This document shows positions 11,759-30,096 of a stretch of DNA of 32,000 nt, in pieces. Origin of the DNA: Caldicoprobacterales bacterium. GTDB taxonomy: Bacteria; Bacillota; Clostridia; Caldicoprobacterales; DTU083. The stretch lies in contig JBMNJE010000011.1 of assembly GCA_050951505.1 (NCBI GenBank), positions 483,168 through 515,167 on the forward strand, in the 5' to 3' direction. Position numbers and translations under genes: made by a program. The notes below the pieces were generated by a model. The model worked only from the letters and a program-made list of their open reading frames with translations, was not told the DNA's origin and made no database searches. Position 1 is the first letter of the stretch; every line of letters starts with the position of its first letter.

Positions 11759-12496
11759 ATGGAAGCCATCACCGGAAGTCTTTTGGCACTGATAAAATTA
11801 TTGTTTTTTATTGCCCATGTTACCGGCAGTAATTCATTTCCCAAGCCTTTGAGCCCGGAAGAAGAAGAATATCATCTTATCAGGTATTCTCAGGGCAACG
11901 AAGAATCACGAAATATTTTGATTGAACATAATCTGAGGCTGGTTGCTCATATCGTTAAAAAGTACAACAGCACCGGCAGAGATGTGGATGATCTGATTTC
12001 CATAGGGACAATTGGATTAATAAAAGCGATTTCTACCTACAATATGGAAAAAAAAACACGACTGGCTACTTATGCAGCCCGCTGTATAGAAAATGAAATT
12101 CTGATGACCATTCGTGCTTCCAGAAAGACAAAGAGCGAAGTCTCCTTACAGGATCCTATCGGAGTAGACAAGGAAGGCAATGAAATAACACTGATTGATA
12201 TATTAGGCAGCCATCCTGATACGGTGACAGATCAGGTAGAGCTTAAGCTGCTGACAGTAAAACTATACAAAAAAATGCAGACTGTATTAAAAAAAAGAGA
12301 ACAGATTGTATTGGAGATGCGGTATGGACTTACTAATGGCAAAACAAGAACACAAAGGGAAATTGCGCAATTGCTGGGGATATCCCGCTCCTATGTGTCA
12401 CGGATTGAAAAAAGAGCAATCATGAAACTGGCGAAGGAAATGGATCCAAATTTCACAATGTCGAATGAAAATGTCTCAAATGAGGAGGTAAATTAA
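11759..12496 (+). CDS. sigK: Sporulation sigma factor, pro-sigma-K
   Basis: 245 aa. Hydrophobic pro-sequence, then SFPKPLSPEEEEY...NILIEHNLRLVAHIVKKY, which closely resembles B. subtilis SigK (from memory). Region 2/4 motifs DLISIGTIGLIKA, ATYAARCIENEILM, ISRSYVSRIEKRA. RBS GGAGGTGA. Confidence 0.85.
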   Translation: MEAITGSLLALIKLLFFIAHVTGSNSFPKPLSPEEEEYHLIRYSQGNEESRNILIEHNLRLVAHIVKKYNSTGRDVDDLISIGTIGLIKAISTYNMEKKTRLATYAARCIENEILMTIRASRKTKSEVSLQDPIGVDKEGNEITLIDILGSHPDTVTDQVELKLLTVKLYKKMQTVLKKREQIVLEMRYGLTNGKTRTQREIAQLLGISRSYVSRIEKRAIMKLAKEMDPNFTMSNENVSNEEVN

Positions 12497-12650: not shown

Positions 12651-13157
12651 ATGCTGAAGCCTAACCTGACTGTCGGTTCTATATTTGATATTGATCTCCA
12701 ATCTCTGATGGAAAAGGGGTATAAATATATTATTATAGATGTTGACAATACGATAACTGCCTGGAATCATTATAAAATCAGTCAAAGGCTTAGAAACTGG
12801 GTATTCAAGGCTAAAGAAACAGGTTTTAGCATCTGTCTTTTGTCCAACAATAATCAAGCGAAGGTACAAAAATTTGCTTCGGAACTGAGTGTCATGGCTG
12901 CACCTGTCGGGGGAAAACCTCGTTTACGATCTTTTAAGAGTGCTCTGACTGCTCTAAGAGGCGGCACGCACAACACATTGGTCATAGGAGATCAAATTTT
13001 CACTGATATTCTGGGCGGAAACCGGGCAGGGCTTTTTACCATTCTGGTCGATCCTATTGACAATAAAGAATTCATAGGAACAAAGTTTACCAGGCTGATG
13101 GAACGTATAGTAGCAGGAAGGAGGCCCATATGCAAATCACACCGGCAACCAAGGTAG
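12651..13157 (+). CDS. yqeG: YqeG-family HAD phosphatase
   Basis: HAD motifs: IIIDVDNT (motif I), LSNN (motif II), GDQIFTDILGGNRAG (motif IV). Start placed at ATG 12651 (MLKPN...) by analogy with YqeG. The ORF-track TTG at 12621 is also possible. Confidence 0.8.
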   Translation: MLKPNLTVGSIFDIDLQSLMEKGYKYIIIDVDNTITAWNHYKISQRLRNWVFKAKETGFSICLLSNNNQAKVQKFASELSVMAAPVGGKPRLRSFKSALTALRGGTHNTLVIGDQIFTDILGGNRAGLFTILVDPIDNKEFIGTKFTRLMERIVAGRRPICKSHRQPR

Positions 13158-13972
13158 TCGGTCTCATTGGGCATCCGGTGGCTCACAGTCTGTCACCTGT
13201 TTTGCACAATCATCTTTACCAATCATTGGGACTTGATATGGTGTATCATGCCTTTGATGTATTGCCTGATCAGGTGGAAGCTGCTGCAGCCGGGCTGAAA
13301 GCCCTTGGATTCACTGGCTTTAATGTTACCGTTCCCCATAAGGAAGTGGTATATAATCTTCTGGATTGGATTGATGAAGAGGCCGAAATAGTTGGTGCTG
13401 TCAATACCGTGAAGATTGAAAACGGACGATTGGAGGGGTATAATACCGACGGGCAGGGGTTCATTCAGTCATTGCATGCATCGGGTTTTTCTGTCAGCAA
13501 TAAAAAAGTAGTTATGCTCGGCGCAGGCGGGGCCGCCAGGGCCATTGGAATATCTGTCTCTAAAGAAGAACCGGAAGAAATCTGTATTATAAACCGAACT
13601 TTCAGCAGGGCTGATAGACTGGCATACTTAATCAACAACCACAAAGGAAGAAGAATTGCCAGAGCCGCTTCAGTTATACCGGCAAATACTGATTTTATTA
13701 TTAACACAACCTGTCTGGGTATGTGGCCTGATACAGTTGGAAATCCAATACAGGGATACAGCTTATCAAGTCACATGGTAGTTTGTGATATAGTTTACAA
13801 TCCCAGGCAGACAGCAATGCTAAAGTATGCAGAGAAACATGGCTGCAGGGTCTGTGACGGGATGGGAATGCTGATAGGACAGGGAATCAAAGCAGTTGAA
13901 ATATGGCTGGATACTTCTCTTTCCAAGGATTCCTGGCAGCTCATGTCCAAGGCAGCCTATAATCATAAGTAA
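13130..13972 (+). CDS. aroE: Shikimate dehydrogenase
   Basis: 280 aa. GLIGHPVAHSLSPVLHN, FNVTVPHK, GAVNT, NTDG, GAGGAARA. RBS GGAAGGAGG 7 nt upstream. Overlaps the yqeG end by 28 nt. Confidence 0.92.
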   Translation: MQITPATKVVGLIGHPVAHSLSPVLHNHLYQSLGLDMVYHAFDVLPDQVEAAAAGLKALGFTGFNVTVPHKEVVYNLLDWIDEEAEIVGAVNTVKIENGRLEGYNTDGQGFIQSLHASGFSVSNKKVVMLGAGGAARAIGISVSKEEPEEICIINRTFSRADRLAYLINNHKGRRIARAASVIPANTDFIINTTCLGMWPDTVGNPIQGYSLSSHMVVCDIVYNPRQTAMLKYAEKHGCRVCDGMGMLIGQGIKAVEIWLDTSLSKDSWQLMSKAAYNHK

Positions 13973-14000
13973 GTATCATATTCAAAAGGAGGTCATCTGT

Positions 14001-15524
14001 TTGGCAGAGCGGCTGATTGAGCTACTAACGACAATGCTGGGGCCGTTTGTTTTTGAGTTTTCCCTGGGGCTCCTGCTCATTTTATGGATTGCACTTTACA
14101 TTTACTTCCATGTTATTATTTTGAGGCCTGTTTACATAAATTTAAAGCAGTTTACTGAGCTTTTATCCGGGCTTGATGATTATAGCAATGAAAACCATCC
14201 AAGGATAGAAGAATATATCTACAGCCAAAAAGATATAACATTCCTGCGTGATTTATGGAATGAATTCAAAGAAAAGCACAATGATACATCCAATGTAGAC
14301 CAATGTTTCAATAAACATACTATGGTAACTGCTCCTGCCAGGAGGAACCAGGCTAAATCATTACCGGCCTTTTTTTTGACCGTAGGGCTGACATTATCAT
14401 TATTTTGCCTGCTTCTTCGTTTTCCAGCAGCGCAGCCAGTCTCAGACTTTACCAGTCTTTTGTACACTGCAGTCAGCGAAGTAATCGTAATTGCCTTGTT
14501 TTCCATTTTGCTTTCCTTTATAACGGCTATCGTCAACAGGTATATGTTTAGCAAAGCAGATGCATGGGTATATGAAATTAACAAACTGTTGAAGCGAAAA
14601 CTGCCTTTATCTGATGAGGAAAGTGAGTTTGACAAAATGGCAGCAGCAATAGACAATATGGCCAGCAGTTTGTCCTCATATGCACAATATCAGGCAGATA
14701 TTCAGCGTAACGGTATGAACCAGCTGGTTGATGTCTTTCTTGAGAAGCTGCATAGTGAAATGGACGGGCAAATGCAAGTCCTGGGTGAGTCCTTGCAGAG
14801 TGTTTCTGAAACGCAGATGCAGCTGGCATCCCAAACAGGAGTATTTATAAATGAATTGATTAAGGGAACAAGAAACCAAATGCAGGTAAACGAGGTGACT
14901 GATTCCATTGTTTCTTCAATAGCAAGATATCATGAGCAAATCTCCAGCAGCAGTCAAAGTCTGGCAGGCAGCCTGGAGGACCTGCATATGATATCCCAAA
15001 CTCTTAACAACATGATCACTTTCAGCAGTGATGCACTCATGACTGTTAAGCAGGAAAGGGAGAGCCTGAAAGATGAATACGGGAAATACATTCAGGAGAT
15101 GATTGATTTAATACAAAAATACCGGCAAAGTGCAGCTGATGAAGTAATACAGGCCATAAACAGATTTACCGATGTTTCCGAGCAATACTTCAATAAGCTG
15201 GAAGACACGGTTAACAGGTCAATGCATGAATGGATTAATACAAATCAGTCTGCAGTGAAGCATTTTGAGGAAAAAACCCAGGATTTTTACAGTGTATCGA
15301 AGGAAGTTTCTCAGCTCCTGGGAGAGATGAACAACAGTCTGAGGGAAACTATGAAGGAATTCACTCAGGCGATTGAGAAGGGAACGATAAATACAATAAC
15401 AGAGTTTGACGAAGGTCTTACGGATATTACCAAGAGACTGAGCCATACAATAACGGAAATTAGAGACTCAATAGATGAGATTCCTGCTGTTATTAATATG
15501 CTGAAAGAAGTTAACAGTGAGTAA
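14001..15524 (+). CDS. MotA/ExbB/TolQ-like (ZorA-like) membrane protein with long C-terminal helical tail
   Basis: Start moved to TTG 14001, 8 nt after AAAGGAGG at 13985-13992. Predicted layout: TM1 (FSLGLLLILWIALYIYFHVIIL), ~95-aa loop, TM2 (LPAFFLTVGLTLSLFCLLL), TM3 (YTAVSEVIVIALFSILLSFITAIV, where SE resembles the GISEAL motif of TolQ/ExbB), then a ~320-aa tail rich in Q/E/S/L and lacking Pro or Gly breaks. Family call is by eye. Confidence 0.6.
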   Translation: MAERLIELLTTMLGPFVFEFSLGLLLILWIALYIYFHVIILRPVYINLKQFTELLSGLDDYSNENHPRIEEYIYSQKDITFLRDLWNEFKEKHNDTSNVDQCFNKHTMVTAPARRNQAKSLPAFFLTVGLTLSLFCLLLRFPAAQPVSDFTSLLYTAVSEVIVIALFSILLSFITAIVNRYMFSKADAWVYEINKLLKRKLPLSDEESEFDKMAAAIDNMASSLSSYAQYQADIQRNGMNQLVDVFLEKLHSEMDGQMQVLGESLQSVSETQMQLASQTGVFINELIKGTRNQMQVNEVTDSIVSSIARYHEQISSSSQSLAGSLEDLHMISQTLNNMITFSSDALMTVKQERESLKDEYGKYIQEMIDLIQKYRQSAADEVIQAINRFTDVSEQYFNKLEDTVNRSMHEWINTNQSAVKHFEEKTQDFYSVSKEVSQLLGEMNNSLRETMKEFTQAIEKGTINTITEFDEGLTDITKRLSHTITEIRDSIDEIPAVINMLKEVNSE

Positions 15525-15560
15525 ACCTGCAATTTAAAATAAGAGAGGAAAAGAAGAAGG

Positions 15561-16385
15561 ATGAGAATAATGCAAAGAGAGAGTTTCATATGGAATCCTT
15601 TCAACATAATAACAGCTATTTTTCTCTTCTTCATGATAATGTGTCTTTTATTTTTATCAGCATATAATTCAGCACAATTAATGGCGGAGGGCTCAACTGA
15701 AGAACCGATCAACCCGGATAATGAGCTGCTTACCATGAAAGAAATTCTTGCTGAAAAAGCACTCCTCAATAAACGGGAGTCCAGTTTAAACGAAAAGGAG
15801 GAAAGACTAAAAAAACAGGAAGAACGTTTGACTGATCAGGAAGCCTCATTAAACAAACTGATGGAGGTTCGTACAAAAATAATAAGGCAGCTGGTTGATA
15901 CATTCTCTCAATCCAATTTAATATTGGAAATAGATAAGCAAACCGGTGCAATCCGATTTAGTGACGGAATCTTTTTTGATGCCAGCCGGGATGTCATAAA
16001 TGAAAATGGTGCAGAGTATTTGAATGAGTTTATACCCGCTTATTTCTCCATTCTGCTCAATGATGATAATCGGGAGTTTATCGCAGAGATTATTATTGAA
16101 GGACATACAGACGATGTGGGGAGCTACCTCAGCAATCTGGAACTGTCTCAAAACAGAGCTCTGGCAGTTGCCAGATTTATACTCCATGATGATTTTCCTG
16201 AGTTTGAACATAAGGATATCATTCATAAATATTTAACAGCCAATGGAAGATCGTACAGCCAGCCTATAATGACTAATGGGGTAATTAACAGGGATAAGTC
16301 CAGGAGAGTGGAATTCAAGTTTCGCCTGAAGGACGAGGAAACCATAAAGGAAATGCAACAGATATTTGAAAGGACCAATAGGTGA
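15561..16385 (+). CDS. MotB/ZorB-like protein: N-terminal TM + coiled coil + OmpA-type peptidoglycan-binding domain
   Basis: 274 aa. TM segment WNPFNIITAIFLFFMIMCLLFL aligns by eye with the MotB YADFMTAMMAFFLVM. Coiled coil (LNEKEERLKKQEERLTDQEASLNKL). OmpA_C motifs IIEGHTDDVGSYLSNLELSQNRALAVARFIL and SRRVEFKF. Starts 36 nt after the preceding gene. Confidence 0.75.
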   Translation: MRIMQRESFIWNPFNIITAIFLFFMIMCLLFLSAYNSAQLMAEGSTEEPINPDNELLTMKEILAEKALLNKRESSLNEKEERLKKQEERLTDQEASLNKLMEVRTKIIRQLVDTFSQSNLILEIDKQTGAIRFSDGIFFDASRDVINENGAEYLNEFIPAYFSILLNDDNREFIAEIIIEGHTDDVGSYLSNLELSQNRALAVARFILHDDFPEFEHKDIIHKYLTANGRSYSQPIMTNGVINRDKSRRVEFKFRLKDEETIKEMQQIFERTNR

Positions 16386-17590
16386 TGGGATACGCTATAG
16401 CTTTTCCAGTACTTAAGTTTAACAAGACAGCGGAATATATCCGAAAAATGCATCCTTATACGAAAGAAATCCCCTTGATGGATATGAAGGATGAGGTGCA
16501 GGAATTGCTCAGCCAAATCGACCGGCTGGATGAAAACAAAATGGCTGATTATGTCTTGTCTCTCCCAAACAGCGACTTGGTACTGATTTTTCATGCACTG
16601 TTATATGATATATCTTCATTACAAAGAGAAAGGCTTTTATTCATTCTGTCACAAAGGATGAAAAAGCGTTTTTTTCATTATAATTGGATCATGCTGCAGG
16701 AGCATTATACCAATGCTTCTCTTATAGAGTCTTTCATTCTGCTTATGAAGTTTATGAAGGAAAAATATCCAATTGAATATAATCGTTCTTTGGCCAGTAA
16801 ATTATCATTTCCCAGAGGTGATTTGGTAAATCAGGCCTTAATGGTATTGGATGAAGAACAATGCACATTGAGTGATTTTTTAAAGCGATACAGCTTCATT
16901 GAAGGCAGCGCTCTTTCCGGAGCATTGTTGGAGACGTATTTTTTACAATGCAGCAAAGAAGGATTTCACAAGAATGCAGATTTATTTATAAAGTGGATCA
17001 ATACTTTAGACAGCATGCCTTATTCACAAATAATTCATTATCTGGATGTTATGAGCATTCTGGATTTCGTGGAAGATATTAACAATTATCTGATTGAGAT
17101 TATTGGATTACCGGGGCAGAGCGAGCATTGGAACAAAATAGAAAAAAGATTTCAGACAAAATTCCTGAAATGGATAAAATTCAAGGATTTGGGAAAATAT
17201 CTGGGGTTAAATACAGAAAAATTTGTTTTTTGGAATGATTATTATCATTATGTAGAGAAAGTTGAGTGTTATCCGGAACTGGGCATTTTGTTTTTGCACC
17301 TGCCCGGTCATGTGGTAGTTGACTTAAAGGAGAACAGCAGTACTTCCTATCTTTATAAAAATAACATCTTTCATGCAGCTTACGAACAATTTGATACTGC
17401 CGGCGGATTTGAAGGGAAAAGCAGCTGGCCGTTGGAATCAGAGGAAAGCATTGAGCCGATTAAGAATGCTATACTGGAAAATAATCATTCTGAAATATAC
17501 GAGCTGATATATGAAGGAATGGGCAAACTGTATATTCGTGACTATCTGGAATCATATTGTCAGAATAAGAGCATAAAATTAATTTACTGA
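16385..17590 (+). CDS. Hypothetical soluble helical protein; possible EH-signature (ZorC-like) domain protein
   Basis: ATG 16385 overlaps the preceding TGA by 1 nt (TGATG); GTG 16382 is an alternative. About 401 aa, no TM, no catalytic motif I recognise. The size and its position after a MotA-like/OmpA-like pair match the Zorya ZorC / EH_Signature context. It contains an E-H dipeptide (GQSEHWNKIEKRF), but I cannot verify that this is the family signature. Confidence 0.5.
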   Translation: MGYAIAFPVLKFNKTAEYIRKMHPYTKEIPLMDMKDEVQELLSQIDRLDENKMADYVLSLPNSDLVLIFHALLYDISSLQRERLLFILSQRMKKRFFHYNWIMLQEHYTNASLIESFILLMKFMKEKYPIEYNRSLASKLSFPRGDLVNQALMVLDEEQCTLSDFLKRYSFIEGSALSGALLETYFLQCSKEGFHKNADLFIKWINTLDSMPYSQIIHYLDVMSILDFVEDINNYLIEIIGLPGQSEHWNKIEKRFQTKFLKWIKFKDLGKYLGLNTEKFVFWNDYYHYVEKVECYPELGILFLHLPGHVVVDLKENSSTSYLYKNNIFHAAYEQFDTAGGFEGKSSWPLESEESIEPIKNAILENNHSEIYELIYEGMGKLYIRDYLESYCQNKSIKLIY

Positions 17591-17624: not shown

Positions 17625-19307
17625 ATGGTTAATCGCAGCAAAAGAGGCTTAGGTGAGATCCTTTTAGAGTCCGGGATTATCACATCCAGCCAGCTGGAAG
17701 AAGCATTAATAAAGCAAAAAACAAGCGGAAAAAGACTGGGAGAGATTCTGATTGCCGAAGGCATCATCAATGAAAAACAATTAATAGAAGCACTTGAATA
17801 TCAGTTGAAGATACCCTATTTCGATTTTACAACCGAGTCCATTCAACCGGAGATTCCCAGACTTATCAGTGAAAGTTTGGCCAGGAGGCATATGCTTATA
17901 CCCATCAGCAGGGAAGGCAAACAACTGACGGTAGCAATGGTAGATCCGCTTAACCTATACGCCATCGATGATGTTAATATTGCTACCGGGCTTCAAGTGA
18001 AACCTGCTCTGGCATTACGCAGTCATATAGAAAGCGCCATTGATCGCTATTACGGCAAGGAGAGTGCAGAAAAAGCCGTAGAGGATTTTACGCGGGAGAT
18101 TGGAATAGAACAGATCAACGAAATAGAAGAAAATATACTCAGTGAGATTAATAATGCCCCAGTAGTCAGGCTGGTGGATTCCATAATACAGCATGCAGTT
18201 CGTGCAAGGGCAAGCGACATTCATATAGAGCCTTTTGAAAAGAATATACGGATTAGATTTCGTATTGACGGTGAACTGCAGGAAATAATGACTTCCTCAA
18301 AAACCACTCATTCTGCCATTGTAACACGTATCAAAATCATTGGCAGAATGGACATTGCGGAAAAAAGAATTCCTCAGGATGGACGTGTAGAACTCCAGGT
18401 AGACAATAAGGATGTGGACTTACGAATTTCAGTTCTGCCTACTGTCTATGGAGAAAAGATTGTAATACGCTTATTGGATCGCAGCAGCACGATTATGACC
18501 AAAACCCAATTGGGCTTTAGTGAAACCAATATCAGGATGTTTGACAAACTGATCCAAAGCCCAAACGGAATTATTTTGGTTACCGGTCCTACCGGAAGCG
18601 GAAAAACTACAACCCTGTATGCTGTTTTGCAGGAATTGAATAAAATTAACAGAAATATAATCACAGTGGAAGATCCGGTGGAATATCGATTGGACGGGGT
18701 AAATCAGGTGTCAGTAAATGTCAAAGCCGGACTGACTTTTGCCAACGGACTACGCTCCATTCTGCGCCAGGACCCGGATATTATAATGATTGGAGAGATA
18801 CGTGATGCGGAAACAGCTGAGATATCAGTACGTGCAGCAATCACAGGCCATCTGGTTTTAAGTACAATGCATACCAACGATTCGGCGTCCACTGTTTCAA
18901 GGCTGGTTGATATGGGTATTGAACCTTATCTTGTGTCCTCATCAGTTGTAGGTGTAGTAGCCCAACGATTGGTAAAAAAGATTTGCAGTAATTGTAAAGT
19001 GGAGTATGAGCCATTATCTTCGGAGAAAGATTTGCTGAATAAGCCTGATTTAGATGTATTGTATAAAGGAGAAGGATGCAGTTTATGCAATAATACAGGA
19101 TATAGAGGAAGAACCGCTATACATGAAGTAATGCTTATGACGAGGGAGATTCGTGAGATGGTAGACAGAAGAGCTTCGATTGATGCTATCAGAGCCGCTT
19201 CTGCCAAGTACGGTACGATTACTCTTAGAGACAGCTGCAGTCAGTTGGTTTGGGAAGGAATTACAACTACCGATGAAATGTTGAAGGTGACATATAGTAT
19301 AGAATAG
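17625..19307 (+). CDS. pilB: Type IV pilus assembly (extension) ATPase PilB, GspE family, with N-terminal MshEN-type domain
   Basis: 560 aa. Walker A GPTGSGKTT, Walker B/Asp box IIMIGEIRD, His box LVLSTMHTN, tetracysteine CSNC...CSLC. N-terminal tandem RLGEIL-type repeats. RBS AAAGGAGGGG. Confidence 0.95.
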   Translation: MVNRSKRGLGEILLESGIITSSQLEEALIKQKTSGKRLGEILIAEGIINEKQLIEALEYQLKIPYFDFTTESIQPEIPRLISESLARRHMLIPISREGKQLTVAMVDPLNLYAIDDVNIATGLQVKPALALRSHIESAIDRYYGKESAEKAVEDFTREIGIEQINEIEENILSEINNAPVVRLVDSIIQHAVRARASDIHIEPFEKNIRIRFRIDGELQEIMTSSKTTHSAIVTRIKIIGRMDIAEKRIPQDGRVELQVDNKDVDLRISVLPTVYGEKIVIRLLDRSSTIMTKTQLGFSETNIRMFDKLIQSPNGIILVTGPTGSGKTTTLYAVLQELNKINRNIITVEDPVEYRLDGVNQVSVNVKAGLTFANGLRSILRQDPDIIMIGEIRDAETAEISVRAAITGHLVLSTMHTNDSASTVSRLVDMGIEPYLVSSSVVGVVAQRLVKKICSNCKVEYEPLSSEKDLLNKPDLDVLYKGEGCSLCNNTGYRGRTAIHEVMLMTREIREMVDRRASIDAIRAASAKYGTITLRDSCSQLVWEGITTTDEMLKVTYSIE

Positions 19308-19320
19308 GTGGTGGATTATA

Positions 19321-20382
19321 ATGGTAAGCATAAATGATCTACTGGCGGATGCAGTAAATTCAAAGGCTTCAGACGTTCACCTAACAGTGGGTGTACCTCC
19401 TATCATTCGAATAAACGGTATTCTGCATCCATATAATGACACAATACTAACATCGGATGATACAAAACATTATATACTTCAGGTACTCAATGAACATGAA
19501 CGGGAACAGTTGGACAAATATGGTGAATGGGATTTATCCTTCTTCCTGCCCGGAGTGGCGCGCTTCCGGGTTAATGCTTACAAGCAGCGCGGCAGTTATG
19601 CCATGGCTATCAGAATAGTCAGCATCGACCCGCCAACTTTGGACGAGCTTGGTTTCCCGGATAGTCTGAAGGAACTGTCAATGAAACCAAGAGGGCTGAT
19701 TCTGGTGACAGGACCTACCGGGAGCGGCAAATCCACTACCCTGGCTGCCATGGTGGATCACATTAACAGAAACAGGCGATGCCACATTATTACCCTGGAA
19801 GATCCAATTGAATACTTACATAAGCACAATAAGAGTATTGTTAACCAAAGAGAAATCGGCAGTGACAGCAAGACTTTTGCCAATGGACTTCGTGCTGCCC
19901 TTCGTGAAGATCCTGATGTTATTCTGGTAGGAGAAATGAGGGACATGGAAACAATTTCCACCGCAATTACAGCGGCTGAAACCGGACATCTGGTCATGTC
20001 TACCCTCCATACCATGAGTGCTGATCAAACGGTAGATCGTATCATAGATACATTTCCCGGGCATCAGCAGGCACAGATCAGGACTCAGCTTTCTTTTGTA
20101 ATTGAAGGCATTATAGCCCAGCAGCTGCTCCCTCTCAGGAACAATAAAGGCAGAGTAGCAGCGTTGGAAATACTTTTGGCCAACAACGCCATACGTAATT
20201 TAATTCGTGAGGGAAGAACACATCAAATACAAACAGCTATTCAGACCGGACTAAGGACTGGTATGAGCACCATGGATTATTCCCTAGCAAATTTGGTACG
20301 CAGGAATTTAATTACATTGGAAGTTGCCATGGAACGTGCAATGGATACAGAGATGCTGAAACAGCATTTGAGAACCGGCTGA
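19321..20382 (+). CDS. pilT: Type IV pilus retraction ATPase PilT
   Basis: 353 aa. Walker A GPTGSGKST, ILVGEMRD, LVMSTLHT, PilT-specific AIRNLIREGRTHQI motif. Confidence 0.95.
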   Translation: MVSINDLLADAVNSKASDVHLTVGVPPIIRINGILHPYNDTILTSDDTKHYILQVLNEHEREQLDKYGEWDLSFFLPGVARFRVNAYKQRGSYAMAIRIVSIDPPTLDELGFPDSLKELSMKPRGLILVTGPTGSGKSTTLAAMVDHINRNRRCHIITLEDPIEYLHKHNKSIVNQREIGSDSKTFANGLRAALREDPDVILVGEMRDMETISTAITAAETGHLVMSTLHTMSADQTVDRIIDTFPGHQQAQIRTQLSFVIEGIIAQQLLPLRNNKGRVAALEILLANNAIRNLIREGRTHQIQTAIQTGLRTGMSTMDYSLANLVRRNLITLEVAMERAMDTEMLKQHLRTG

Positions 20383-20424
20383 TAAAGATCAAACCGATGC
20401 AGTTATGTCGAAAGGGGGATGAAT

Positions 20425-21630
20425 ATGCCTTTATTTGAATACAAGGCAATCAGTCAAACCGGTGAAAGCATAACCGGGCGGTACAATGCAAAAACACGTA
20501 ATGAAATTATGGAAATGCTTCGTAGTAAAAACTATCATCCCGTCCAGGTAAAGGAAGTTGGAGGAAGCAAGGATCTCAGTACGCTGAGTGTATTCAACAA
20601 AGTCAAAATTAAAGATATAGCTGTATTTGCAAGACAGTTTCACGCAATGCTGAATGCCGGTGTGACCATTATTCAGTGTCTGGATATTTTAAGACAGCAA
20701 ACTGAAAAACAAGCATTTAAGAATGTTATAGAAAAGGTTTACGAATCAGTCCAAAAAGGCTCAACCCTATCCGAGTCGATGAAGGAACACCGACAAACCT
20801 TTCCTGAACTGTTTGTCAATATGGTAGAAGCAGGAGAAGCCAGCGGAAACCTGGATAGTATCATGGATAGAATGGCTGTTCATTACGAAAAGGAAACCAA
20901 GATACAGAACAAAATTAGAGGTGCAATGACCTATCCTATTATCCTTGCAGTGGTTTCTGTTGTTGTTGTTGTGTTCATGTTAGTAGCTATCCTTCCTACC
21001 TTTCTCAGCATGTTTGAAGGCAGCGGTTTGGCTTTACCCGGGCCCACCAAATTTTTACTTTCCATTAGCAATGGGATCAGACAGTATTGGTATATAATTT
21101 TGATGGTCATAATTGCTGTAGTATATCTGATTCACAGATACATCAATACAGAGGAAGGGAGGAAACAATTTGACCGGTTGAAGCTGAAAATGCCGGTAGT
21201 CAACAACATGGTGATCAAGGTAGCCACCTCAAGATTTACCCGTACATTAGCAACTCTGCTGGCCAGTGGCATCCCTTTGCTGCCTTCAATGGATATAGTG
21301 TCCAAAATCGTAGGAAATCGGATTATTTCTGATGGCATATTAGGTGTTAAAGAAGATCTGAGAAAAGGCTATGATTTGGCAGGGCCTATCCGTCGACTGG
21401 GAATATTCCCGCCTATAGTAGACTCCATGATTCGAATAGGCGAAGAATCCGGTTCATTGGAGGAAGTGCTGCAGAGGACAGCAGATTTTTATGATGAGGA
21501 AGTAGATGTGGCAATACAAAAAATGACATCCATGCTGGAACCTCTCATGCTGGTTGTTATGGCAATTGTTATCGGCTTTCTGGTAGTAGCAATGTACCTA
21601 CCCATGATTGACATGATGCAGACGATATAA
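20425..21630 (+). CDS. pilC: Type IV pilus platform protein PilC (GspF family)
   Basis: Two GspF repeats (FARQFHAMLNAGVTI..., FTRTLATLLASGIPLL...) and three TM segments. Start set at ATG 20425 (MPLFEYKA...), 6 nt after the G5 SD. ATG 20419 abuts the SD. Confidence 0.9.
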   Translation: MPLFEYKAISQTGESITGRYNAKTRNEIMEMLRSKNYHPVQVKEVGGSKDLSTLSVFNKVKIKDIAVFARQFHAMLNAGVTIIQCLDILRQQTEKQAFKNVIEKVYESVQKGSTLSESMKEHRQTFPELFVNMVEAGEASGNLDSIMDRMAVHYEKETKIQNKIRGAMTYPIILAVVSVVVVVFMLVAILPTFLSMFEGSGLALPGPTKFLLSISNGIRQYWYIILMVIIAVVYLIHRYINTEEGRKQFDRLKLKMPVVNNMVIKVATSRFTRTLATLLASGIPLLPSMDIVSKIVGNRIISDGILGVKEDLRKGYDLAGPIRRLGIFPPIVDSMIRIGEESGSLEEVLQRTADFYDEEVDVAIQKMTSMLEPLMLVVMAIVIGFLVVAMYLPMIDMMQTI

Positions 21631-21642
21631 ATTAGAAATGAG

Positions 21643-22710
21643 GTGATCCCATTGGCTAAATACCTGATTTCTCTGGATCTGGGCAGCCAAAATATACAAA
21701 TAATATATGGCAGATACAATAAAGGGAATATAGAAATACGAAACGCAGTTACTGCCCCAATACCGGAGGAAGTGTACAAGGATGGAAGAATTGAGGATCT
21801 TGATATGATGAAGCAATCCATCCGGGATTTGATTACCGCAAACAAGATCAAGGAAAAAAGGACAGCACTAACGATACAAAGTACATCCATCATTACCAGA
21901 GACATTATGCTGCCGGCAACTGAGCGTCAGCATTTGGATAACATGGTAAAATATGAGATCGAGCAGTATCTGCCCATTGTAGCAACAGAGTATATCATAG
22001 ATTATTCTGTATTGGACGAGATTGATGAAGATGGAATAAGAAAATACAGGATACATGTAGCTGCAATTCCAAAAAATATGGTCGAACAATACTTGTCTCT
22101 GGTAAAGGGAATAGGGTTGAAGCCTATAGCTCTGGACATTCACTCCAACGCCGCAGCCAAGCTTTTTTCCCAAAACGCATCCATAAATGGAGAGGATTTG
22201 GACATCAGCAAGACTTTAGCCTATATTGATTTTGGATATCGAAGCATCAGTATTCATATACTATCAAAAGGAAAGCTGGAATTCAGCCGAATGATCAATT
22301 TAGGCGCGAGGGAAATGGATGAAGAAATATCTATTACCTGTAATTTATCACTGAGCCAGGCTGAAAAGAAAAAGATTCAGGAAGCAGATCTGAATCCTGA
22401 GGATTACAATGAACTAATGGCAGATTCTTTTCATGATATTATTCGTTCTCAGACAGATATCTGGCTGGCCGAAATTCAGAAGGTTTTTCAGTATTACATC
22501 AGCAGAACAACCGGTAATCATATTGAAGGTATTTATCTATATGGAGGCGGTTCCAGGCTTAAGGGTCTGGATAAATATGTTGAGCAGGCATTGAACCTTC
22601 GTACCAGAAACATTGATAATCTTGCTATTATCAAAACAGCGGTGAGCACTTCTTATTTCAACCCCAGGGACTATATTAATGCATTGGGGGCGCTGATACG
22701 ATATGAGTAA
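21643..22710 (+). CDS. pilM: Type IV pilus assembly protein PilM (actin-like ATPase fold)
   Basis: LISLDLGSQNIQIIYG, IDFGYRSISIHIL, IYLYGGGSRLKGL phosphate-binding loops. The true start may be TTG 21652, just after GAGGTGAT. Confidence 0.85.
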   Translation: MIPLAKYLISLDLGSQNIQIIYGRYNKGNIEIRNAVTAPIPEEVYKDGRIEDLDMMKQSIRDLITANKIKEKRTALTIQSTSIITRDIMLPATERQHLDNMVKYEIEQYLPIVATEYIIDYSVLDEIDEDGIRKYRIHVAAIPKNMVEQYLSLVKGIGLKPIALDIHSNAAAKLFSQNASINGEDLDISKTLAYIDFGYRSISIHILSKGKLEFSRMINLGAREMDEEISITCNLSLSQAEKKKIQEADLNPEDYNELMADSFHDIIRSQTDIWLAEIQKVFQYYISRTTGNHIEGIYLYGGGSRLKGLDKYVEQALNLRTRNIDNLAIIKTAVSTSYFNPRDYINALGALIRYE

Positions 22711-23299
22711 CATTAATCTGCAAAAACAGGATTTTAACTTTTTTTCCCATGAGATTTACTCCAAGCGCTCAACAAGAAAAAGAAGTATACAGCTTGGAGT
22801 TATGGTACTAATATTTTTGATGCTGATAGCGGGTGTTTATTTTTACTTTGAGTATGCTATTCATTCTGCTCAGGAACAAATCGATTCCCTTGATGAATTT
22901 CTGGCATCGGAAGAAGTTGATGCGAATCGGAGACTGGTTGCAGAGAAAAAACAGGAAATCAATGAACTGAAAAGACACTCTGCTGCTTTGAAATCCTTCC
23001 TTGAGAATATTCAGAGAAAGGACATCATAGGAACCGAATACATTAATCAGCTTACCTCTGCCATCCCTCAAGGCTTGTTTTTTGAAAGCATAACCCTGAC
23101 TACGGAACAGATACATATACAGGGAAAATCGCCGAATAGGCAGATTATTGCGGAATACCTGAACAATATGCAGGCTTTGGAGCTCTTTCAGGATGTCCAT
23201 GTACCAAGTATAACTACCATTTCCGAAGAAGAGGATAACGAGCAGGGTGAATACTCCTTTGTCATGACCTGTATCTTAAAGGATGTGATGGAAGAATGA
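22703..23299 (+). CDS. pilN: PilN-like pilus assembly protein
   Basis: 198 aa. Short cytoplasmic N-terminus (SNINLQKQDFNFF), single TM (LGVMVLIFLMLIAGVYFYF), coiled coil. Overlaps pilM by 8 nt. Confidence 0.7.
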   Translation: MSNINLQKQDFNFFSHEIYSKRSTRKRSIQLGVMVLIFLMLIAGVYFYFEYAIHSAQEQIDSLDEFLASEEVDANRRLVAEKKQEINELKRHSAALKSFLENIQRKDIIGTEYINQLTSAIPQGLFFESITLTTEQIHIQGKSPNRQIIAEYLNNMQALELFQDVHVPSITTISEEEDNEQGEYSFVMTCILKDVMEE

Positions 23300-24087
23300 A
23301 ACTAACAAAGAGAGAGGCCTTCCTGCTGAAGTTAGTCAGTTTTGTAGCTTTACTGGCTCTATCCTACTATTTTATAATAGCACCACAACTGGAAAGATTA
23401 GCTGAGACTGAACAGAATCTGGCATTAAAATCTTCGGAAGTTGAGACGATTGAATCAGAGATACAAAGTCTTCCCCTACTAGAGGAGGAAATTGCATCAC
23501 TGCAAGAAGAAATCAGGGTTTCAACAAAAACCTTTTACCCTGAACTGCGGCAGAAGAAGCTTATTGTTATTCTGGATGAACAGCTTAAACAGTCCGGAAC
23601 AGCAGCGGATTCTTTGACGTTTTCCCAGGTAAATTCTGAAGAAAGTACTGAAGATCTTGGAACAGATAATGAACAAACCGAAAATTCAGATGTCAATTCC
23701 AATGGAGAGCCTGTAAAGACAGTTCTTCAGTCCATATCAATTCAAGTCCCATTTACCGGCAGTTATGAGCAAATAATTGATTTGATAAGGAGACTGGAAG
23801 ACATGAATCGTACTTTCGTCATTAACAGCCTTCAGCTGTCCCAAGGTACAGACGGCACAATCAGCGGAACAATTAATCTGGATTTTTATTCATTGAAAAA
23901 ACTGTTCCCTGATCCACAGGATGAGGATTATCTTAGCTGGCCATACAATACACCTAAAGGTATAGACAATCCTTTCCGGTTCATAGAAAGTGAAGAATCG
24001 GTATCTGAAGATGACTTGGAAACAACAGCACCGGAGGGGACAGAATCTCTGCCCGAGTCAGAGAATCAGGATGAGGAACAACCATAA
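23296..24087 (+). CDS. pilO: PilO-like pilus assembly protein with acidic low-complexity segments
   Basis: 263 aa. N-terminal TM (LKLVSFVALLALSYYFII), coiled coil, ferredoxin-like-sized C-terminal region. ATGA overlap with pilN. Call rests mainly on position and architecture. Confidence 0.65.
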   Translation: MKLTKREAFLLKLVSFVALLALSYYFIIAPQLERLAETEQNLALKSSEVETIESEIQSLPLLEEEIASLQEEIRVSTKTFYPELRQKKLIVILDEQLKQSGTAADSLTFSQVNSEESTEDLGTDNEQTENSDVNSNGEPVKTVLQSISIQVPFTGSYEQIIDLIRRLEDMNRTFVINSLQLSQGTDGTISGTINLDFYSLKKLFPDPQDEDYLSWPYNTPKGIDNPFRFIESEESVSEDDLETTAPEGTESLPESENQDEEQP

Positions 24088-24103
24088 AATGAAGGGGATT
24101 TAA

Positions 24104-24874
24104 ATGGAATTTGTTCTTATAGCGCTCGTATCTATAGCAGGATTGCTGATGGGCAGTTTTTTCAATGTATGCATCTATCGTGTTCCGAGAGACCAATCCA
24201 TAGTAAAACCTGCTTCCCGATGTACCTCCTGCGGCACAAGATTAGCCTGGCGTGATTTAATGCCTGTAATCAGCTGGGTTAGTCTGGGAGGGAAATGTCG
24301 TTACTGCAAGAGTCCTATATCTTATAGATACACTTTAGTTGAACTGCTTACCGGTTTGATATATGTAGTTCTGTATCTGAAATTTGGAATAAGCGGCAGC
24401 TTTTTAACGTATGCAATACTTTGTTCGATATTAATTATTGCTACCCTTATCGATTTGGACTTTCAGATCATACCGGACGGACTGGTACTTACAGGGGCAA
24501 TATTCGCTTTATTGCTGATACCGGCCGGTCTGTCTGTTCACTGGAAAGATGCATTGCTGGGGATGCTGGCAGGAGGAGGCACATTTTTGCTGATTGCGCT
24601 TCTTTCCTCGTGGATTCTCAAAAAAGAAGGTATGGGCGGCGGTGATATCAAACTAATGGGCATGATAGGCCTGTTTATCGGATGGAAATTAACAGCTTTA
24701 TCCATCCTCTTATCAATATATGCAGGCGGAATAATTGGCGGATTACTGATGCTGCTCAGAAAGAAGAAACGCGGCGATGCCATACCATACGGCCCATTTA
24801 TTGCTGCAGGCACGGTTATTGCCATTCTTTACGGAAACGATTTGATTCAATGGTATATCCTGACGTTTTTGTAA
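24104..24874 (+). CDS. pilD: Prepilin peptidase / N-methyltransferase PilD (peptidase A24)
   Basis: 256 aa. N-terminal CxxC...CxxC (CTSCGTRL...CRYCKSPI). Catalytic Asp motifs LIDLDFQIIPD and GGGDIKLMG. Multiple TMs. Confidence 0.95.
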   Translation: MEFVLIALVSIAGLLMGSFFNVCIYRVPRDQSIVKPASRCTSCGTRLAWRDLMPVISWVSLGGKCRYCKSPISYRYTLVELLTGLIYVVLYLKFGISGSFLTYAILCSILIIATLIDLDFQIIPDGLVLTGAIFALLLIPAGLSVHWKDALLGMLAGGGTFLLIALLSSWILKKEGMGGGDIKLMGMIGLFIGWKLTALSILLSIYAGGIIGGLLMLLRKKKRGDAIPYGPFIAAGTVIAILYGNDLIQWYILTFL

Positions 24875-26823: not shown

Positions 26824-28599
26824 TTGAGGGGTTCGGTGTTGATACTTACATTATACATTATGATGGCCATGTCATTTCTGATAATAACAGTTTTTTCAAT
26901 GGCAGGGACTCATTTAATCATCACAAAAAGCGATAATTTGCATCAACAGGCTTATTATCTGGCGGAGACCGGATTGTTTTTGGCACAAAGTGAACTCCAG
27001 CAGATAGTTGCAAGAGCCTATGAAGATTGCATGGCGGAATTTCAATGGGACCCCTTGCAGCAGCCCCTGAACAGCTTACAGGAATGTGCAGAAAAACATG
27101 TAGCTGTTAAAATAGATCCAATCATCAATAAAAGGCTGCTGGAACTGGGTTATTTGTTTCAATTCCCTGAGCCTGATCTGCCTGTTGATCTGCCTGATGC
27201 TAAAATAGATGTCAGGATTCGATTTGTGGACCTATATAAGAACCCTTCCAGGCTGTTGATTTCTTCCCGTGGAATCATCGGCGGAATCCGCAGAAGAATC
27301 GATGCAGAAGTCCACATAAATAAGATCAGCGGCATTAACAGCAGTCTGCTATTTGAAAAAGTACTCTATACCGGAGACGACTTGCTGGTAAGCAATGGAG
27401 GAAGGTTACTGTCTCTTGGTGCTGTTCATATTCAGGGGAGCATTCAGGTTTCGGACAACAGTTTACTTGAAATAAGAAGACAGTCGGCTATCCGGGATGA
27501 AGTAAGGCTGATTAACTCCAGTCAGGCATTTTTTGCGGAAGATATGGTCTGTGATGGAATAAGTGTGGAAGGTGAGCCGGATTCTTTTATCGAATGTCTG
27601 GGGAATGTATATTGTCATGAGGTAGTTTACGCCCATGGTACGAATAATATGATTGATATTCATGAAAGTTTGTACATCTGCCCTGAAGAAGAATTCGCTT
27701 CTGCAGGCGTAAAGGCAGGAGGCGGCGCAAGGATTACACTTATGGATAAAGTATTCATCAATGGAACATTGCACTATGAAACTGAAAAAAGTCATCTGTT
27801 CGGAATGGAGGAACTGCCTGTTTTTGGTGGAGTATATCACAGCTGTGAAAGTATTGGCGGATTTAACAGTACTTTTTATTTTCCTGATACAGCTCCGGAT
27901 GATGCCAGACGTTTTTTTGAGCCGGAATTTGCCGGCCTCAGCAGAACAGAGCAGGCGCTCATGATATATGAATATTTGAATGCTTCCCCCGATACAATAA
28001 TGGATCAAGAATCTTATGAACATCACTTGGCAGGAGTTGACTGTGACAGCATTCACCTTACTATGACCGACCCTGTGACCGGCTATACATCAGGTTTGAT
28101 TTTTGCCGGCAGCAAGGTTAGCAGAACACTTCACATGGAGCAGCCTGATGCCTTTTTTGCATCCATTCTCAGGAAGATGAAACAGCAAACCGGCTGGGAT
28201 TTTTCTTCCCAACTTAATGCAGGAATATCTGTATCAGAAAGCAATGTTATGATAGAGGGGGATTTTTTATCTGTTTTGAACCACAATCAGCCAATAATCT
28301 GCGTTGTCCCGGAGGAAAGAGACTTATATCTCCAATCCGGAGCATTCAGCGGAATAATAATCACAAACGGTTCAATTCATGTACCTCAGGATACGGAGGT
28401 TGAATTGACAGGTCTAATGATAGCCGGAGAAAACATATTTGTCGAGGGTGGTCTTACCTTGCGGGAAGATACAGGTATACTTTACCAACTGCTTGATCAG
28501 CAAGACCTTTCTTTGAGACGATTTTTTCGTATTGAACCTGAAAAACCATTGTTTGAAATCAGATCATGTCGCGAAGTATTATTTAATGCACAGTGGTGA
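26824..28599 (+). CDS. PilX-N-like large pilus-associated protein (putative tip/adhesin subunit)
   Basis: TTG start directly after the previous TAG, GGAGGTGA 5 nt upstream. N-terminus RGSVLILTLYIMMAMSFLIITVF...AYYLAETGL resembles the PilX_N/ComGG-type non-cleaved hydrophobic segment. 591 aa with no other recognisable domain. Confidence 0.6.
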   Translation: MRGSVLILTLYIMMAMSFLIITVFSMAGTHLIITKSDNLHQQAYYLAETGLFLAQSELQQIVARAYEDCMAEFQWDPLQQPLNSLQECAEKHVAVKIDPIINKRLLELGYLFQFPEPDLPVDLPDAKIDVRIRFVDLYKNPSRLLISSRGIIGGIRRRIDAEVHINKISGINSSLLFEKVLYTGDDLLVSNGGRLLSLGAVHIQGSIQVSDNSLLEIRRQSAIRDEVRLINSSQAFFAEDMVCDGISVEGEPDSFIECLGNVYCHEVVYAHGTNNMIDIHESLYICPEEEFASAGVKAGGGARITLMDKVFINGTLHYETEKSHLFGMEELPVFGGVYHSCESIGGFNSTFYFPDTAPDDARRFFEPEFAGLSRTEQALMIYEYLNASPDTIMDQESYEHHLAGVDCDSIHLTMTDPVTGYTSGLIFAGSKVSRTLHMEQPDAFFASILRKMKQQTGWDFSSQLNAGISVSESNVMIEGDFLSVLNHNQPIICVVPEERDLYLQSGAFSGIIITNGSIHVPQDTEVELTGLMIAGENIFVEGGLTLREDTGILYQLLDQQDLSLRRFFRIEPEKPLFEIRSCREVLFNAQW

Positions 28600-28600
28600 G

Positions 28601-29545: not shown

Positions 29546-30096
29546 TGAACTTTAATTTACTGCCTCCGGAATACAGGAAGAAGCCTAATATTCTTCGTCG
29601 CATTGTTTTGGTAATTATATCTGCTTTATTGCTATGGCCGATTATAGAGTATGGAATTCTTAGGCCTGTTAATGCTAAATCTGAAAGTCAAAAACAACTG
29701 TCCTTGTTGGAAGAAAAAACTGCCGGCTATAACAGTTTGGAAGAAGAGGAAGAGTATCAGCTTTCTCAACTGGAAGAAATGGAACAGCGAATGCGGAATC
29801 TGCAGCAAATGGATGAATGTACGCCCCTGTATTGGTATAAGATATTGGAGATCTTAACCCAAACCCTGCCCAGCGGCTGTTCCCTAAATCATTTTACTTG
29901 TAACGACAATATCATACTCTTGTCCGGTACAAGTAAAAATGACAAGATTTCTGCAGTTTATCTCCGAAATCTTCAAAACAGCAATTTTTTTTCAGAAGTG
30001 CGAACAGAAAAAATTATGTACCAGCAGAACGATGAGGCCAGTTTTACTTTACGCTGTATTTTAAAACAAAAACCGAAAGAGGAAGTCACGCCATGA
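29545..30096 (+). CDS. Second PilN-like protein
   Basis: ATG 29545 overlaps the previous TGA by 1 nt. N-terminus MNFNLLPPEYRKK carries the canonical PilN INLLP-type motif. Single TM (IVLVIISALLLWPII) and a coiled coil. Confidence 0.7.
   Translation: MNFNLLPPEYRKKPNILRRIVLVIISALLLWPIIEYGILRPVNAKSESQKQLSLLEEKTAGYNSLEEEEEYQLSQLEEMEQRMRNLQQMDECTPLYWYKILEILTQTLPSGCSLNHFTCNDNIILLSGTSKNDKISAVYLRNLQNSNFFSEVRTEKIMYQQNDEASFTLRCILKQKPKEEVTP

Follow-up and report, generated by a model that had tools for sequence, protein, structure and literature searches.

Three genes in a 32,000-nucleotide stretch of DNA from a Caldicoprobacterales bacterium (contig JBMNJE010000011.1, positions 483,168 to 515,167; the whole stretch is referred to here as the window) lie between aroE and pilB, the gene of a type IV pilus (T4P) extension ATPase. 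All three were found to be homologous to ZorA, ZorB and ZorC, which bears out the preliminary description of them as a Zorya-core-like triad. The triad is a ZorABC-derived module that has been vertically retained inside pilus gene clusters. Many uncultured Clostridia have relatives of it in such clusters. It lacks the residues and the effector gene that define type I Zorya, and the balance tips slightly towards its being an effector-less, probably non-rotary descendant of ZorABC that is now a fixed component of the T4P, in which it would be a static scaffold or adaptor that is fixed to the wall whenever a ZorB-like protein is present.

Homology of the triad to ZorA, ZorB and ZorC

The triad and the positions within it that carry the argument are as follows (window coordinates).

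13985..13992, + strand: ribosome-binding site of gene 1, AAAGGAGG, 8 nucleotides (nt) before the TTG start, read from the sequence
14001..15524, + strand: gene 1, ZorA-like, 507 amino acids (aa), TTG start, assigned by profile, Foldseek and BLASTP
15318..15494, + strand: conserved tail-tip motif of gene 1, aa 440-498, defined by invariant columns and aligning with the proteins of loci L015, L016 and L017 and with canonical ZorA tips
15561..16385, + strand: gene 2, ZorB-like, 274 aa, assigned by PADLOC ZorB1, Pfam OmpA, BLASTP and profile
15603..15605, + strand: Asn15 codon of gene 2, where ZorB (Asp26), MotB, ExbD and TolR have their essential Asp (alignment A1)
16385..17590, + strand: gene 3, ZorC-like, soluble, 401 aa, isoelectric point (pI) 5.5, ATG start, assigned by BLASTP and by AlphaFold2 (AF2) modelling with Foldseek
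17321..17323, + strand: Asp313 codon of gene 3, at the Glu position of the ZorC EH signature (alignment A2)
17510..17512, + strand: Tyr376 codon of gene 3, at the His position of the ZorC EH signature (alignment A2)

Gene 2 is a ZorB homologue. Its product has one transmembrane (TM) helix (hydrophobic aa 8-40), a ~45-aa coiled-coil insertion and an OmpA-type peptidoglycan-binding domain. The PADLOC ZorB1 model (PDLC00609) matched it at 1e-62, over aa 66-269 only, and the Pfam OmpA model (PF00691) scored 36.2 bits against a cut-off of 27.2 (E=7.9e-9). The nearest relatives outside the clade were the ZorBs of complete Firmicute type I ZorABCD operons from Thermoanaerobacterium, with 52% identity over aa 90-271, and Paenibacillus. 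A profile of the gene 2 family matched the ZorB chains 8vvi_A (1.4e-25) and 8qyd_F (1.6e-24), well above MotB. The GHTD...G...N..LS..RA and SRRVEF motifs are intact, the D/N...R motif for contact with peptidoglycan is conserved, and E180, G181, H182, D184, G187, N192, L193, S196, R199 and A200 are invariant between gene 2 and the canonical ZorBs.

Gene 1 is a ZorA homologue that is recognisable only through ZorA profiles and structure. It has three hydrophobic segments by hydropathy (aa 8-46, 119-144 and 149-183) and a helical tail of ~300 aa, which is unbroken over ~aa 209-506 in the AF2 secondary structure. The identity of gene 1 as a ZorA relative follows from three results. A profile built from its close orthologues alone matched the membrane domain of E. 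coli ZorA (8qyh_A, residues 12-207, E=1.1e-6) in a collinear manner, the profile extended with three Firmicute ZorAs matched the full-length ZorA 8qyd_A at 1.6e-27, and a Foldseek search of the PDB with the gene 1 model returned ZorA chains in all of the top five places, followed by TolQ and ExbB. The monomer model had a predicted local distance difference test score (pLDDT) of 56.5 overall with a low-confidence tail, and only membrane-domain matches were used from that search. The BLASTP alignment with the Thermoanaerobacterium ZorA (E=1e-13) was also collinear, over aa 20-498. The ExbB/TolQ/ZorA layout proposed earlier for gene 1 is thus upheld on the side of ZorA, by profile and by fold, whereas Pfam MotA_ExbB gave no match at all.

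The PADLOC ZorA models matched gene 1 over the coiled-coil tail (aa 211-495) and nowhere else; these matches could be compositional and were set aside as proof of homology in favour of the membrane domain. The Pfam and NCBIfam matches were likewise not used, as they represented coiled-coil noise (apolipoprotein, tape measure and the like), with the ZorA equivalogs far below their cut-offs. The orthologue alignment of gene 1 has 84 invariant columns, which are concentrated in the tail tip, and the motif there (...EFDEGLxDITxRLSxTIxEIRDSIDEIPxVI) is the densest invariant block of the protein.

Gene 3 has no hydrophobic segment by hydropathy. It matched the ZorC of the Thermoanaerobacterium ZorABCD operon by BLASTP (E=1e-13 over 320 aa). 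Its AF2 model (pLDDT 85.9) had E. coli ZorC (8r68) as the top Foldseek match among 350,542 PDB chains, with a probability of 0.99 but a low template modelling score (TM-score) of 0.31, and Pfam EH_Signature scored below threshold (16.6 bits against 27.5, E=0.005). The link of gene 3 to E. coli ZorC is that given by the fold search and the EH_Signature model, and a profile of gene 3 with Firmicute ZorCs matched none of the PDB sequences, ZorC included. Gene 3 had been described as soluble, with the size and position of ZorC/EH_Signature proteins but without a recognisable motif; it is indeed a soluble relative of that family, but the statement on the motif was wrong, in that a ZorC-like domain is present with Glu replaced by Asp and His by Tyr.

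Residue replacements and the missing effector

In Zorya, Asp26 of ZorB is universally conserved and mechanistically essential, and the D26N mutation abolishes defence (Hu et al., Nature 2024; PMC11946911). In gene 2, this residue is replaced by Asn15, and alignment A1 has Asn in every pilus-locus orthologue versus Asp in the canonical Firmicute ZorBs. Among the best 120 gene 2 homologues, 87 are of the Asp type, and those of the Asn type occupy exactly ranks 1-20, together with P0063; the ZorB-like proteins of loci L018 and L015 carry Asn also. No acidic residue was found in or beside the TM helix of gene 2. The comparison of gene 2 with MotB/ZorB therefore stands with respect to the single TM helix, the coiled coil and the OmpA domain, but not to an intact stator subunit, as the TM Asp is Asn throughout the clade.

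The Asn-type ZorB-like proteins also have an insertion of ~45 aa between the TM helix and the peptidoglycan-binding domain (gene 2 aa ~41-100), which is part coiled-coil and part low-complexity and is missing from most canonical Firmicute ZorBs (alignment A1). The corresponding spacer in L018 and L015 is a Thr/Ser/Gln/Pro-rich linker.

T147 and S184 of E. coli ZorA form an ion-selectivity filter (PMC11946911). T147 aligns with the invariant Ser133 of gene 1 and S184 with an Ala, the register of TM3 being that of the sequence alignment only, and the canonical Firmicute ZorAs retain Thr and Ser at these positions.

The replacement of the Asp bears on the possibility that the triad is an ion-driven, MotAB-like stator powering some step of the Gram-positive pilus. 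The ZorA/ExbB/TolQ fold of gene 1 and the MotB-like topology of gene 2, with its intact peptidoglycan-binding domain, are what such a stator would have. However, gene 2 is devoid of acidic residues within or next to the TM helix, and gene 1 supplies no conserved acidic TM residue as a substitute, since both E19 in TM1 and E158 in TM3 vary among the orthologues. The TolQ-like 'SE' that had been pointed out in the last TM segment of gene 1 is E, D, Q, K or G among the orthologues and hence is not conserved, and it was rejected together with E19 as a substitute proton carrier. Moreover, the ZorB-like subunit is absent from several lineages that keep the ZorA-like and ZorC-like proteins. Given that the Asp has become Asn and that several lineages have lost the B subunit, we regard rotation driven by ions as very unlikely and assign only slight probability to the stator. 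Judged by its residues, the triad also fails the defining Asp of the 5:2 ion-driven motors.

The EH motif of ZorC (E400/H443) is required for DNA binding and defence, and E400A or H443A abolishes both (PMC11946911). In alignment A2, the VVVEF of the canonical ZorCs corresponds to VV(V/I)D in 16/16 orthologues, at Asp313 of gene 3, and the His of the canonical ZorCs corresponds to Tyr in 16/16, at Tyr376; the orthologue alignment of gene 3 has 53 invariant columns. An exhaustive search with the clade profile of gene 3 gave 351 cluster representatives (E up to 1e-3), and residues and charges were counted in the full-length sequences within the best 150 matches. In this sample, 103 proteins had Asp at the Glu position and 26 had Glu, and the Asp-type relatives had Tyr or Phe at the His position wherever the column was aligned. 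The 103 proteins of the Asp type were acidic, at a median pI of 5.6 and a net charge of -8, and the 26 of the Glu type were mostly basic, at a median pI of 8.9 and a net charge of +5.5, with a pI above 8 in 19/26. The ZorCs of the Thermoanaerobacterium and Paenibacillus operons grouped with the Glu forms, and a neighbour-joining tree with midpoint rooting united the 26 Glu forms in a single clade free of Asp forms. Gene 3 is a member of a large sister family of ZorC that has the D...Y/F pair, and the acidic charge of the Asp type fits a loss of the DNA-binding role of ZorC.

The third hallmark is ZorD. Deletion of any single Zor gene abolishes E. coli Zorya defence (PMC11946911). By tblastn with two Firmicute ZorDs, nothing was found in the window, in L001-L004 or in L009-L024; the interval from gene 3 to pilB is 34 nt, with no ZorD in the operon. 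A PADLOC scan of 10 other open reading frames (ORFs) of the window revealed no defence effector, only generic, partial P-loop and metallo-beta-lactamase-fold matches on housekeeping genes, which were discarded. The preliminary description was thus right that the 32 kb hold no ZorD/ZorE-type effector. As the ZorC-like protein is acidic and EH-less and no nuclease is present, DNA targeting is unlikely.

It could be argued that this is an ordinary type I Zorya with its ZorD encoded outside the window. The homology to ZorA, ZorB and ZorC is real, and the inspected span was 32 kb here and at most 21 kb per related locus. Nevertheless, zorD sits directly after zorC in canonical Firmicute operons, it was found in 0/17 related loci, and the replacements of D by N and of EH by DY match the E. 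coli loss-of-function mutants D26N, E400A and H443A; we consider this explanation scarcely probable at all. As far as its genes and residues can be read, the triad fails three defining features of type I Zorya, namely, the ZorB Asp, the ZorC EH pair and ZorD, and the changes (Asp to Asn in ZorB, E...H to D...Y in ZorC and an acidic ZorC-like protein) are fixed across the clade. Annotation of the triad as Zorya defence should therefore be avoided. This carries a warning for annotation in general, because a ZorB1 match at 1e-62 together with ZorA matches can come from a locus with very little likelihood of encoding a functional Zorya.

Placement of the triad in pilus gene clusters

The genes around the triad are listed below.

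13130..13972, + strand: aroE (shikimate dehydrogenase; Pfam Shikimate_dh_N and Shikimate_DH), the conserved upstream neighbour, syntenic in 8 related loci
17625-19307, + strand: pilB, extension ATPase, directly downstream of the triad
19321-20382, + strand: pilT, retraction ATPase, directly after pilB (Pfam T2SSE and MshEN for the pilB-pilT pair)
20419..24874, + strand: pilC, pilM, pilN, a pilO/T2SSM-like gene and pilD (Pfam T2SSF, PilM_2, PilN, T2SSM_b and Peptidase_A24)
from 25013, + strand: pilin genes (Pfam N_methyl)

The packing of three genes between aroE and pilB is as first described, in both ORFs and gaps: 28 nt between aroE and gene 1, 36 nt between genes 1 and 2, a 1-nt overlap (-1) of genes 2 and 3 and 34 nt between gene 3 and pilB. 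The overlap is a TGATG junction that includes the ATG of gene 3. The identity of the pilus-motor neighbours, PilB and PilT, was confirmed by Pfam, and the absence of terminator hairpins was also borne out, in that the four junctions were free of + strand terminator-like sites in a sequence scan; shuffled sequence had just as many promoter-like and terminator-like sites. The tight spacing and the overlapping stop and start codons indicate, as far as spacing can, co-translation of the triad with the pilus genes.

Close orthologues of the triad are rare, with 16 clusters for gene 3 and 10 for gene 1, and orthologues of gene 3 occur in only six GTDB species representatives, all of them metagenome-assembled genomes (MAGs) of Clostridiales, Eubacteriales or Firmicutes. 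In 8/8 independent contigs, the order was yqeG-aroE-gene1-gene2-gene3-pilB-pilT-pilC-pilM. Since the same arrangement recurs in 8 independent contigs, the adjacency of aroE, the triad and pilB is not due to chance, and the survey of related Clostridia for co-occurrence with pilB/pilT that had been suggested has thus shown a conserved pilus linkage. In the 8 loci, identity to the window proteins was 38-49% for gene 1, 46-68% for gene 2 and 44-59% for gene 3, and complete copies of PilB, PilT and PilC in the same genome pairs were 74-86% identical; genes 1 and 3 (38-59%) accordingly diverge far faster than the adjoining PilB/PilT/PilC (74-86%). All triad copies in the orthologous loci are intact ORFs.

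Two loci differ from this pattern in detail. In the Clostridiales MAG AS08sgBPME_164 (L011:8424-11176, DUOI01000074.1), gene 2 is cleanly missing and genes 1 and 3 are kept; gene 1 ends at 9944, the gene 3 homologue follows ~56 nt on, and the synteny of aroE with pilB, pilT, pilC and pilM is intact. In Firmicutes bacterium UBA5454 (L012:5952-9140, DIQU01000060.1), a truncated aroE (232 aa) is accompanied by a second partial aroE (244 aa), and gene 1 is short at the N-terminus (434 aa). No conclusion was drawn from this truncation, since it falls together with the partial duplication of aroE and has the look of an artefact of MAG assembly or of a local duplication.

The linkage to pilus genes extends to distant members of the Asp form, which were chosen for look-up only by the length of their contigs, without regard to gene context. 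In L016 and L017, a ZorA-like and a ZorC-like gene are followed by pilD on the opposite strand, pilB and pilT, without a ZorB-like gene. A metagenome scan with the alignment of subfamily 2 gave five further loci, all with ZorA-like, ZorC-like and pilD(-) genes in a row and with pilB and pilT next wherever the contig reaches that far. In L018 (OW818679.1, a complete 4.34-Mb genome), pilins, pilM, pilN and pilO precede ZorA-like, OmpA/ZorB-like and ZorC-like genes, and in L019, the tail end of a ZorA-like gene and a ZorC-like gene are convergent with pilT and pilB. L015, whose upstream end is cut off and whose downstream side is without pilus genes, is compatible with the L018 order and uninformative. 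Besides the window, 17 loci had readable context, and in all of them the ZorC-like gene lies together with a ZorA-like gene directly next to pilB/pilT/pilD or pilMNO. They represent five subfamilies, with PilB identity down to 55-62%, and four gene orders: aroE-A-B-C-pilB-pilT-pilC-pilM (8 loci), A-C-pilD(-)-pilB-pilT, pilM-pilN-pilO-A-B-C and A-C-pilT(-)-pilB(-). The ZorB-like gene is dispensable in several lineages, and the ZorA-like/ZorC-like pair is constant.

By hhalign, the L017 ZorA-like protein aligned with gene 1 over the full length (5e-19) and that of L016 at the tail tip (6.8e-16). Their lengths of 764 aa (L016:7581-9875) and 652 aa (L017:5400-7358), compared with 507 aa for gene 1, indicate that the tail varies widely in length; the tip motif EFD.GL..I..R......I.(D/E)(S/A)VE.LP is retained in both.

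A decaying Zorya remnant that was inserted beside pilB, has no current function and owes its position to accident might be suspected from the loss of the catalytic and signature residues, from the lineage cleanly without gene 2 and from the disrupted 5' end of gene 1 in one MAG. The full-length ORFs persist, however, at 38-59% identity with 53 (gene 3) and 84 (gene 1) invariant columns, and a single accidental insertion cannot explain a pilus link that is found in four gene orders with PilB identity down to 55-62%. Such a remnant seems highly improbable.

A new anti-phage Zorya subtype guarding the T4P, a common phage receptor, deserves more consideration. In this alternative, the ZorA/B-like proteins would sense pilus-mediated phage entry, and the ZorC-like protein would act through another effector. 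This could be the motor of the pilus, whose PilT-driven retraction might be blocked, for instance. The parts descend from a proven defence system, the effector-recruiting tip of the ZorA tail is the most conserved part of gene 1, and, as the best support, the triad has changed at a much higher rate than the pilus and housekeeping genes on either side, as arms-race genes do. On the other hand, the ZorB Asp, the ZorC E/H pair and the nuclease are all absent, each being individually required in E. coli Zorya; the acidic ZorC-like protein makes DNA binding unlikely; the fixed position in several deep subfamilies differs from the patchy, island-borne spread typical of defence systems; the ZorB-like sensor/anchor subunit has been lost repeatedly; and no copies were found in plasmid or viral collections. 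We therefore regard a pilus-guarding Zorya as unlikely, although it keeps appreciable weight. A mobile-element origin of the triad was also rejected, with zero relatives in the viral contigs of IMG/VR or the plasmids of PLSDB.

The remainder of the neighbourhood is as follows. Upstream, Pfam identified mltG/YceG, an O-methyltransferase, a U32 peptidase, a pro-sigma factor, a YqeG-type HAD phosphatase and aroE. The sigma-70 family gene (window 11759-12496), which is 80-85% identical in all related loci, has an N-terminal extension (...HVTGSNSFPKPLSPEEE...) that we take to resemble the pro-sequence of the sporulation sigma factors SigE/SigK. Past the pilins, a second pilM/pilN/pilO-like set (window 28532-30668) consists of a 337-aa ORF without a Pfam match, followed by PilN and PilO matches, and ahead of the set, a 591-aa ORF (26824-28599) was matched by neither Pfam nor PADLOC. 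Elsewhere, Natroniella sp. ANB-PHB2 (L008:6352-8726, CP175562.1) has a ZorA (545 aa, passing Pfam MotA_ExbB) and an Asp-type ZorB among metabolic genes, with no ZorC, ZorD or pilus genes nearby, which represents another incomplete Zorya-like arrangement.

A candidate pilus scaffold and its relation to known systems

The pilus motor and platform are the one constant neighbour across these arrangements, and a scaffold or adaptor is hence the most economical function for the triad. In Zorya, the tip of the ZorA tail recruits ZorC and ZorD (PMC11946911). By analogy, the ZorA-like protein is probably assembled into a pentamer in the membrane, with a coiled coil as its cytoplasmic tail. The tail would be ~40 nm long if its ~300 residues were one continuous coiled coil, and the conserved tip of this tail probably docks the acidic ZorC-like protein. 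Such a contact fits the constant co-occurrence of ZorA-like and ZorC-like genes. The ZorB-like dimer, where present, would plug the pentamer and tie it to peptidoglycan through the intact OmpA-type domain and the extra coiled-coil spacer. In lineages without a ZorB-like gene, it may be speculated that the paired TM helices of PilN and PilO fill the pore of the ZorA-like pentamer. Without the Asp, no ion-driven rotation would be expected, and the complex would be a static scaffold or adaptor that positions or regulates the pilus motor (PilB/PilT and the PilMNO platform) with respect to the thick wall of the Gram-positive cell, rather than a motor that transduces signals and brings a nuclease to phage DNA. 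Of the two readings offered in the preliminary description, an accessory of the T4P machine is thus favoured over a Zorya-type envelope sensor, but its qualification as stator-like, in the ion-driven sense, is contradicted by Asn in place of Asp.

Several points weigh against a static pilus scaffold. The functional link to the pilus is drawn from gene neighbourhood only, and the functional claims as a whole are based on sequence, predicted structure and neighbourhood. Every carrier is either a metagenome-assembled genome, as almost all of them are, or an uncharacterised one. Gene context was read for five of at least seven subfamilies, with L015 cut off upstream and carrying no pilus gene downstream. 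The rapid change of the triad is also what an arms-race gene would show, and a ZorD could be encoded elsewhere in the carrier genomes. That Asn at the Asp position inactivates the complex is deduced from the aligned residue, and the 5:2 assembly and the binding of the tail tip to gene 3 are transferred from Zorya by analogy.

It is a nearly even matter, inclining to the doubtful side, whether ZorA-like/ZorC-like pairs, with or without the ZorB-like anchor, are in general an unrecognised structural part of the Gram-positive T4P, in the form of a non-rotary 5:2-type membrane complex with a long cytoplasmic tail and an acidic adaptor that organise PilB/PilT. If they are, Zorya defence and the pilus component would be two branches of one ancient module: a cellular machine would have taken over a defence system, or else Zorya would have arisen from a pilus accessory. 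A pilus role of the triad would be a case of Zorya-type components outside defence. It would connect an anti-phage system with a core machine of the cell surface and have a bearing on the origin of Zorya, and a repurposed-looking defence core in a pilus machine would surprise specialists of both fields. The loci in any case nominate new components of Gram-positive type IV pili, a wall anchor included; to our knowledge, Gram-positive pili have no described peptidoglycan anchor, a point at which no literature search was aimed. They also provide natural separation-of-function variants, in which the ZorB Asp is Asn, the ZorC EH pair is DY and ZorD is missing, and the tail tip and the ZorC core are kept. 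Their retention points to the contact between the tail and ZorC as the ancestral and conserved interaction, and such loss-of-motor and loss-of-EH variants could help dissect the roles of the ZorA tail and ZorC.

No paper on ZorA/ZorC-like genes in pilus loci was found in the literature, in agreement with the earlier statement that the arrangement is undescribed. Among cell-envelope machines, peptidoglycan-anchoring accessories are familiar from Gram-negative bacteria, such as FimV and TsaP of the T4P, GspAB of the type II secretion system and TagL/TssL-OmpA of the type VI secretion system. Like the triad, they place a peptidoglycan-binding domain in the gene cluster of the machine, which presumably fixes the machine to the wall; unlike the triad, they carry LysM or OmpA domains on unrelated scaffolds. 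We know of no anchor of this class that is built on a ZorA/ZorB complex with a long tail and a ZorC-like partner, and of none described for the Gram-positive T4P.

The 5:2 ion-driven motors MotAB, PomAB, ExbBD and TolQR share with the triad the fold of the A subunit and, in the B subunit, an N-terminal TM helix with a periplasmic OmpA-type or related domain. They differ in the protonatable TM Asp of the B subunit, described as universally conserved (PMC11946911), which is Asn in the triad, where the B subunit is moreover optional and Pfam MotA_ExbB finds no match.

The E. coli type I Zorya system EcZorI (PDB 8QYD for ZorAB and 8R68 for ZorC; Hu et al., Nature 2024, PMC11946911) gave the best PDB fold matches for genes 1 and 3, and the profile match of its ZorB (1.6e-24) was stronger than that of any MotB. 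Its ZorA tail is ~500 aa, compared with ~300 aa in gene 1, and at the residues discussed above, D26 of ZorB corresponds to Asn, E400/H443 of ZorC to Asp/Tyr and, by sequence alignment, T147/S184 of ZorA to Ser/Ala. EcZorI has a C-terminal domain in ZorC and a ZorD, neither of which the triad has, whereas gene 2 has the extra coiled-coil spacer.

The Firmicute type I Zorya operons are closer still. That of Thermoanaerobacterium thermosaccharolyticum (L005, CP117247) encodes a ZorA of 543 aa, a ZorB of 232 aa, a ZorC of 392 aa and a ZorD of 930 aa with an Snf2 helicase, and that of Paenibacillus sp. (L006) adjoins a type I restriction-modification system. Both have the A-B-C order of the triad, with genes overlapping or tightly spaced. 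The Firmicute ZorAs (543-614 aa) are similar in size to gene 1 and have the same topology and tail-tip motif, the peptidoglycan-binding domains of the ZorBs are 46-52% identical to that of gene 2, and the ZorCs (~390-420 aa), like gene 3, are without the extra C-terminal globular domain of E. coli ZorC. By contrast, these operons have zorD (an Snf2 helicase of 916-930 aa) directly after zorC, retain the ZorB Asp and the E...H pair of a basic ZorC, and sit in defence islands with type I restriction-modification, UvrD/PD-(D/E)xK and WYL genes, whereas the triad sits in a pilus operon. The canonical Firmicute ZorAs also pass Pfam MotA_ExbB and the Paenibacillus ZorC passes EH_Signature, which the window proteins do not. 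Taken together, the Firmicute type I Zorya is the closest relative of the triad, and yet it is the system that the triad would least resemble in the way it works.

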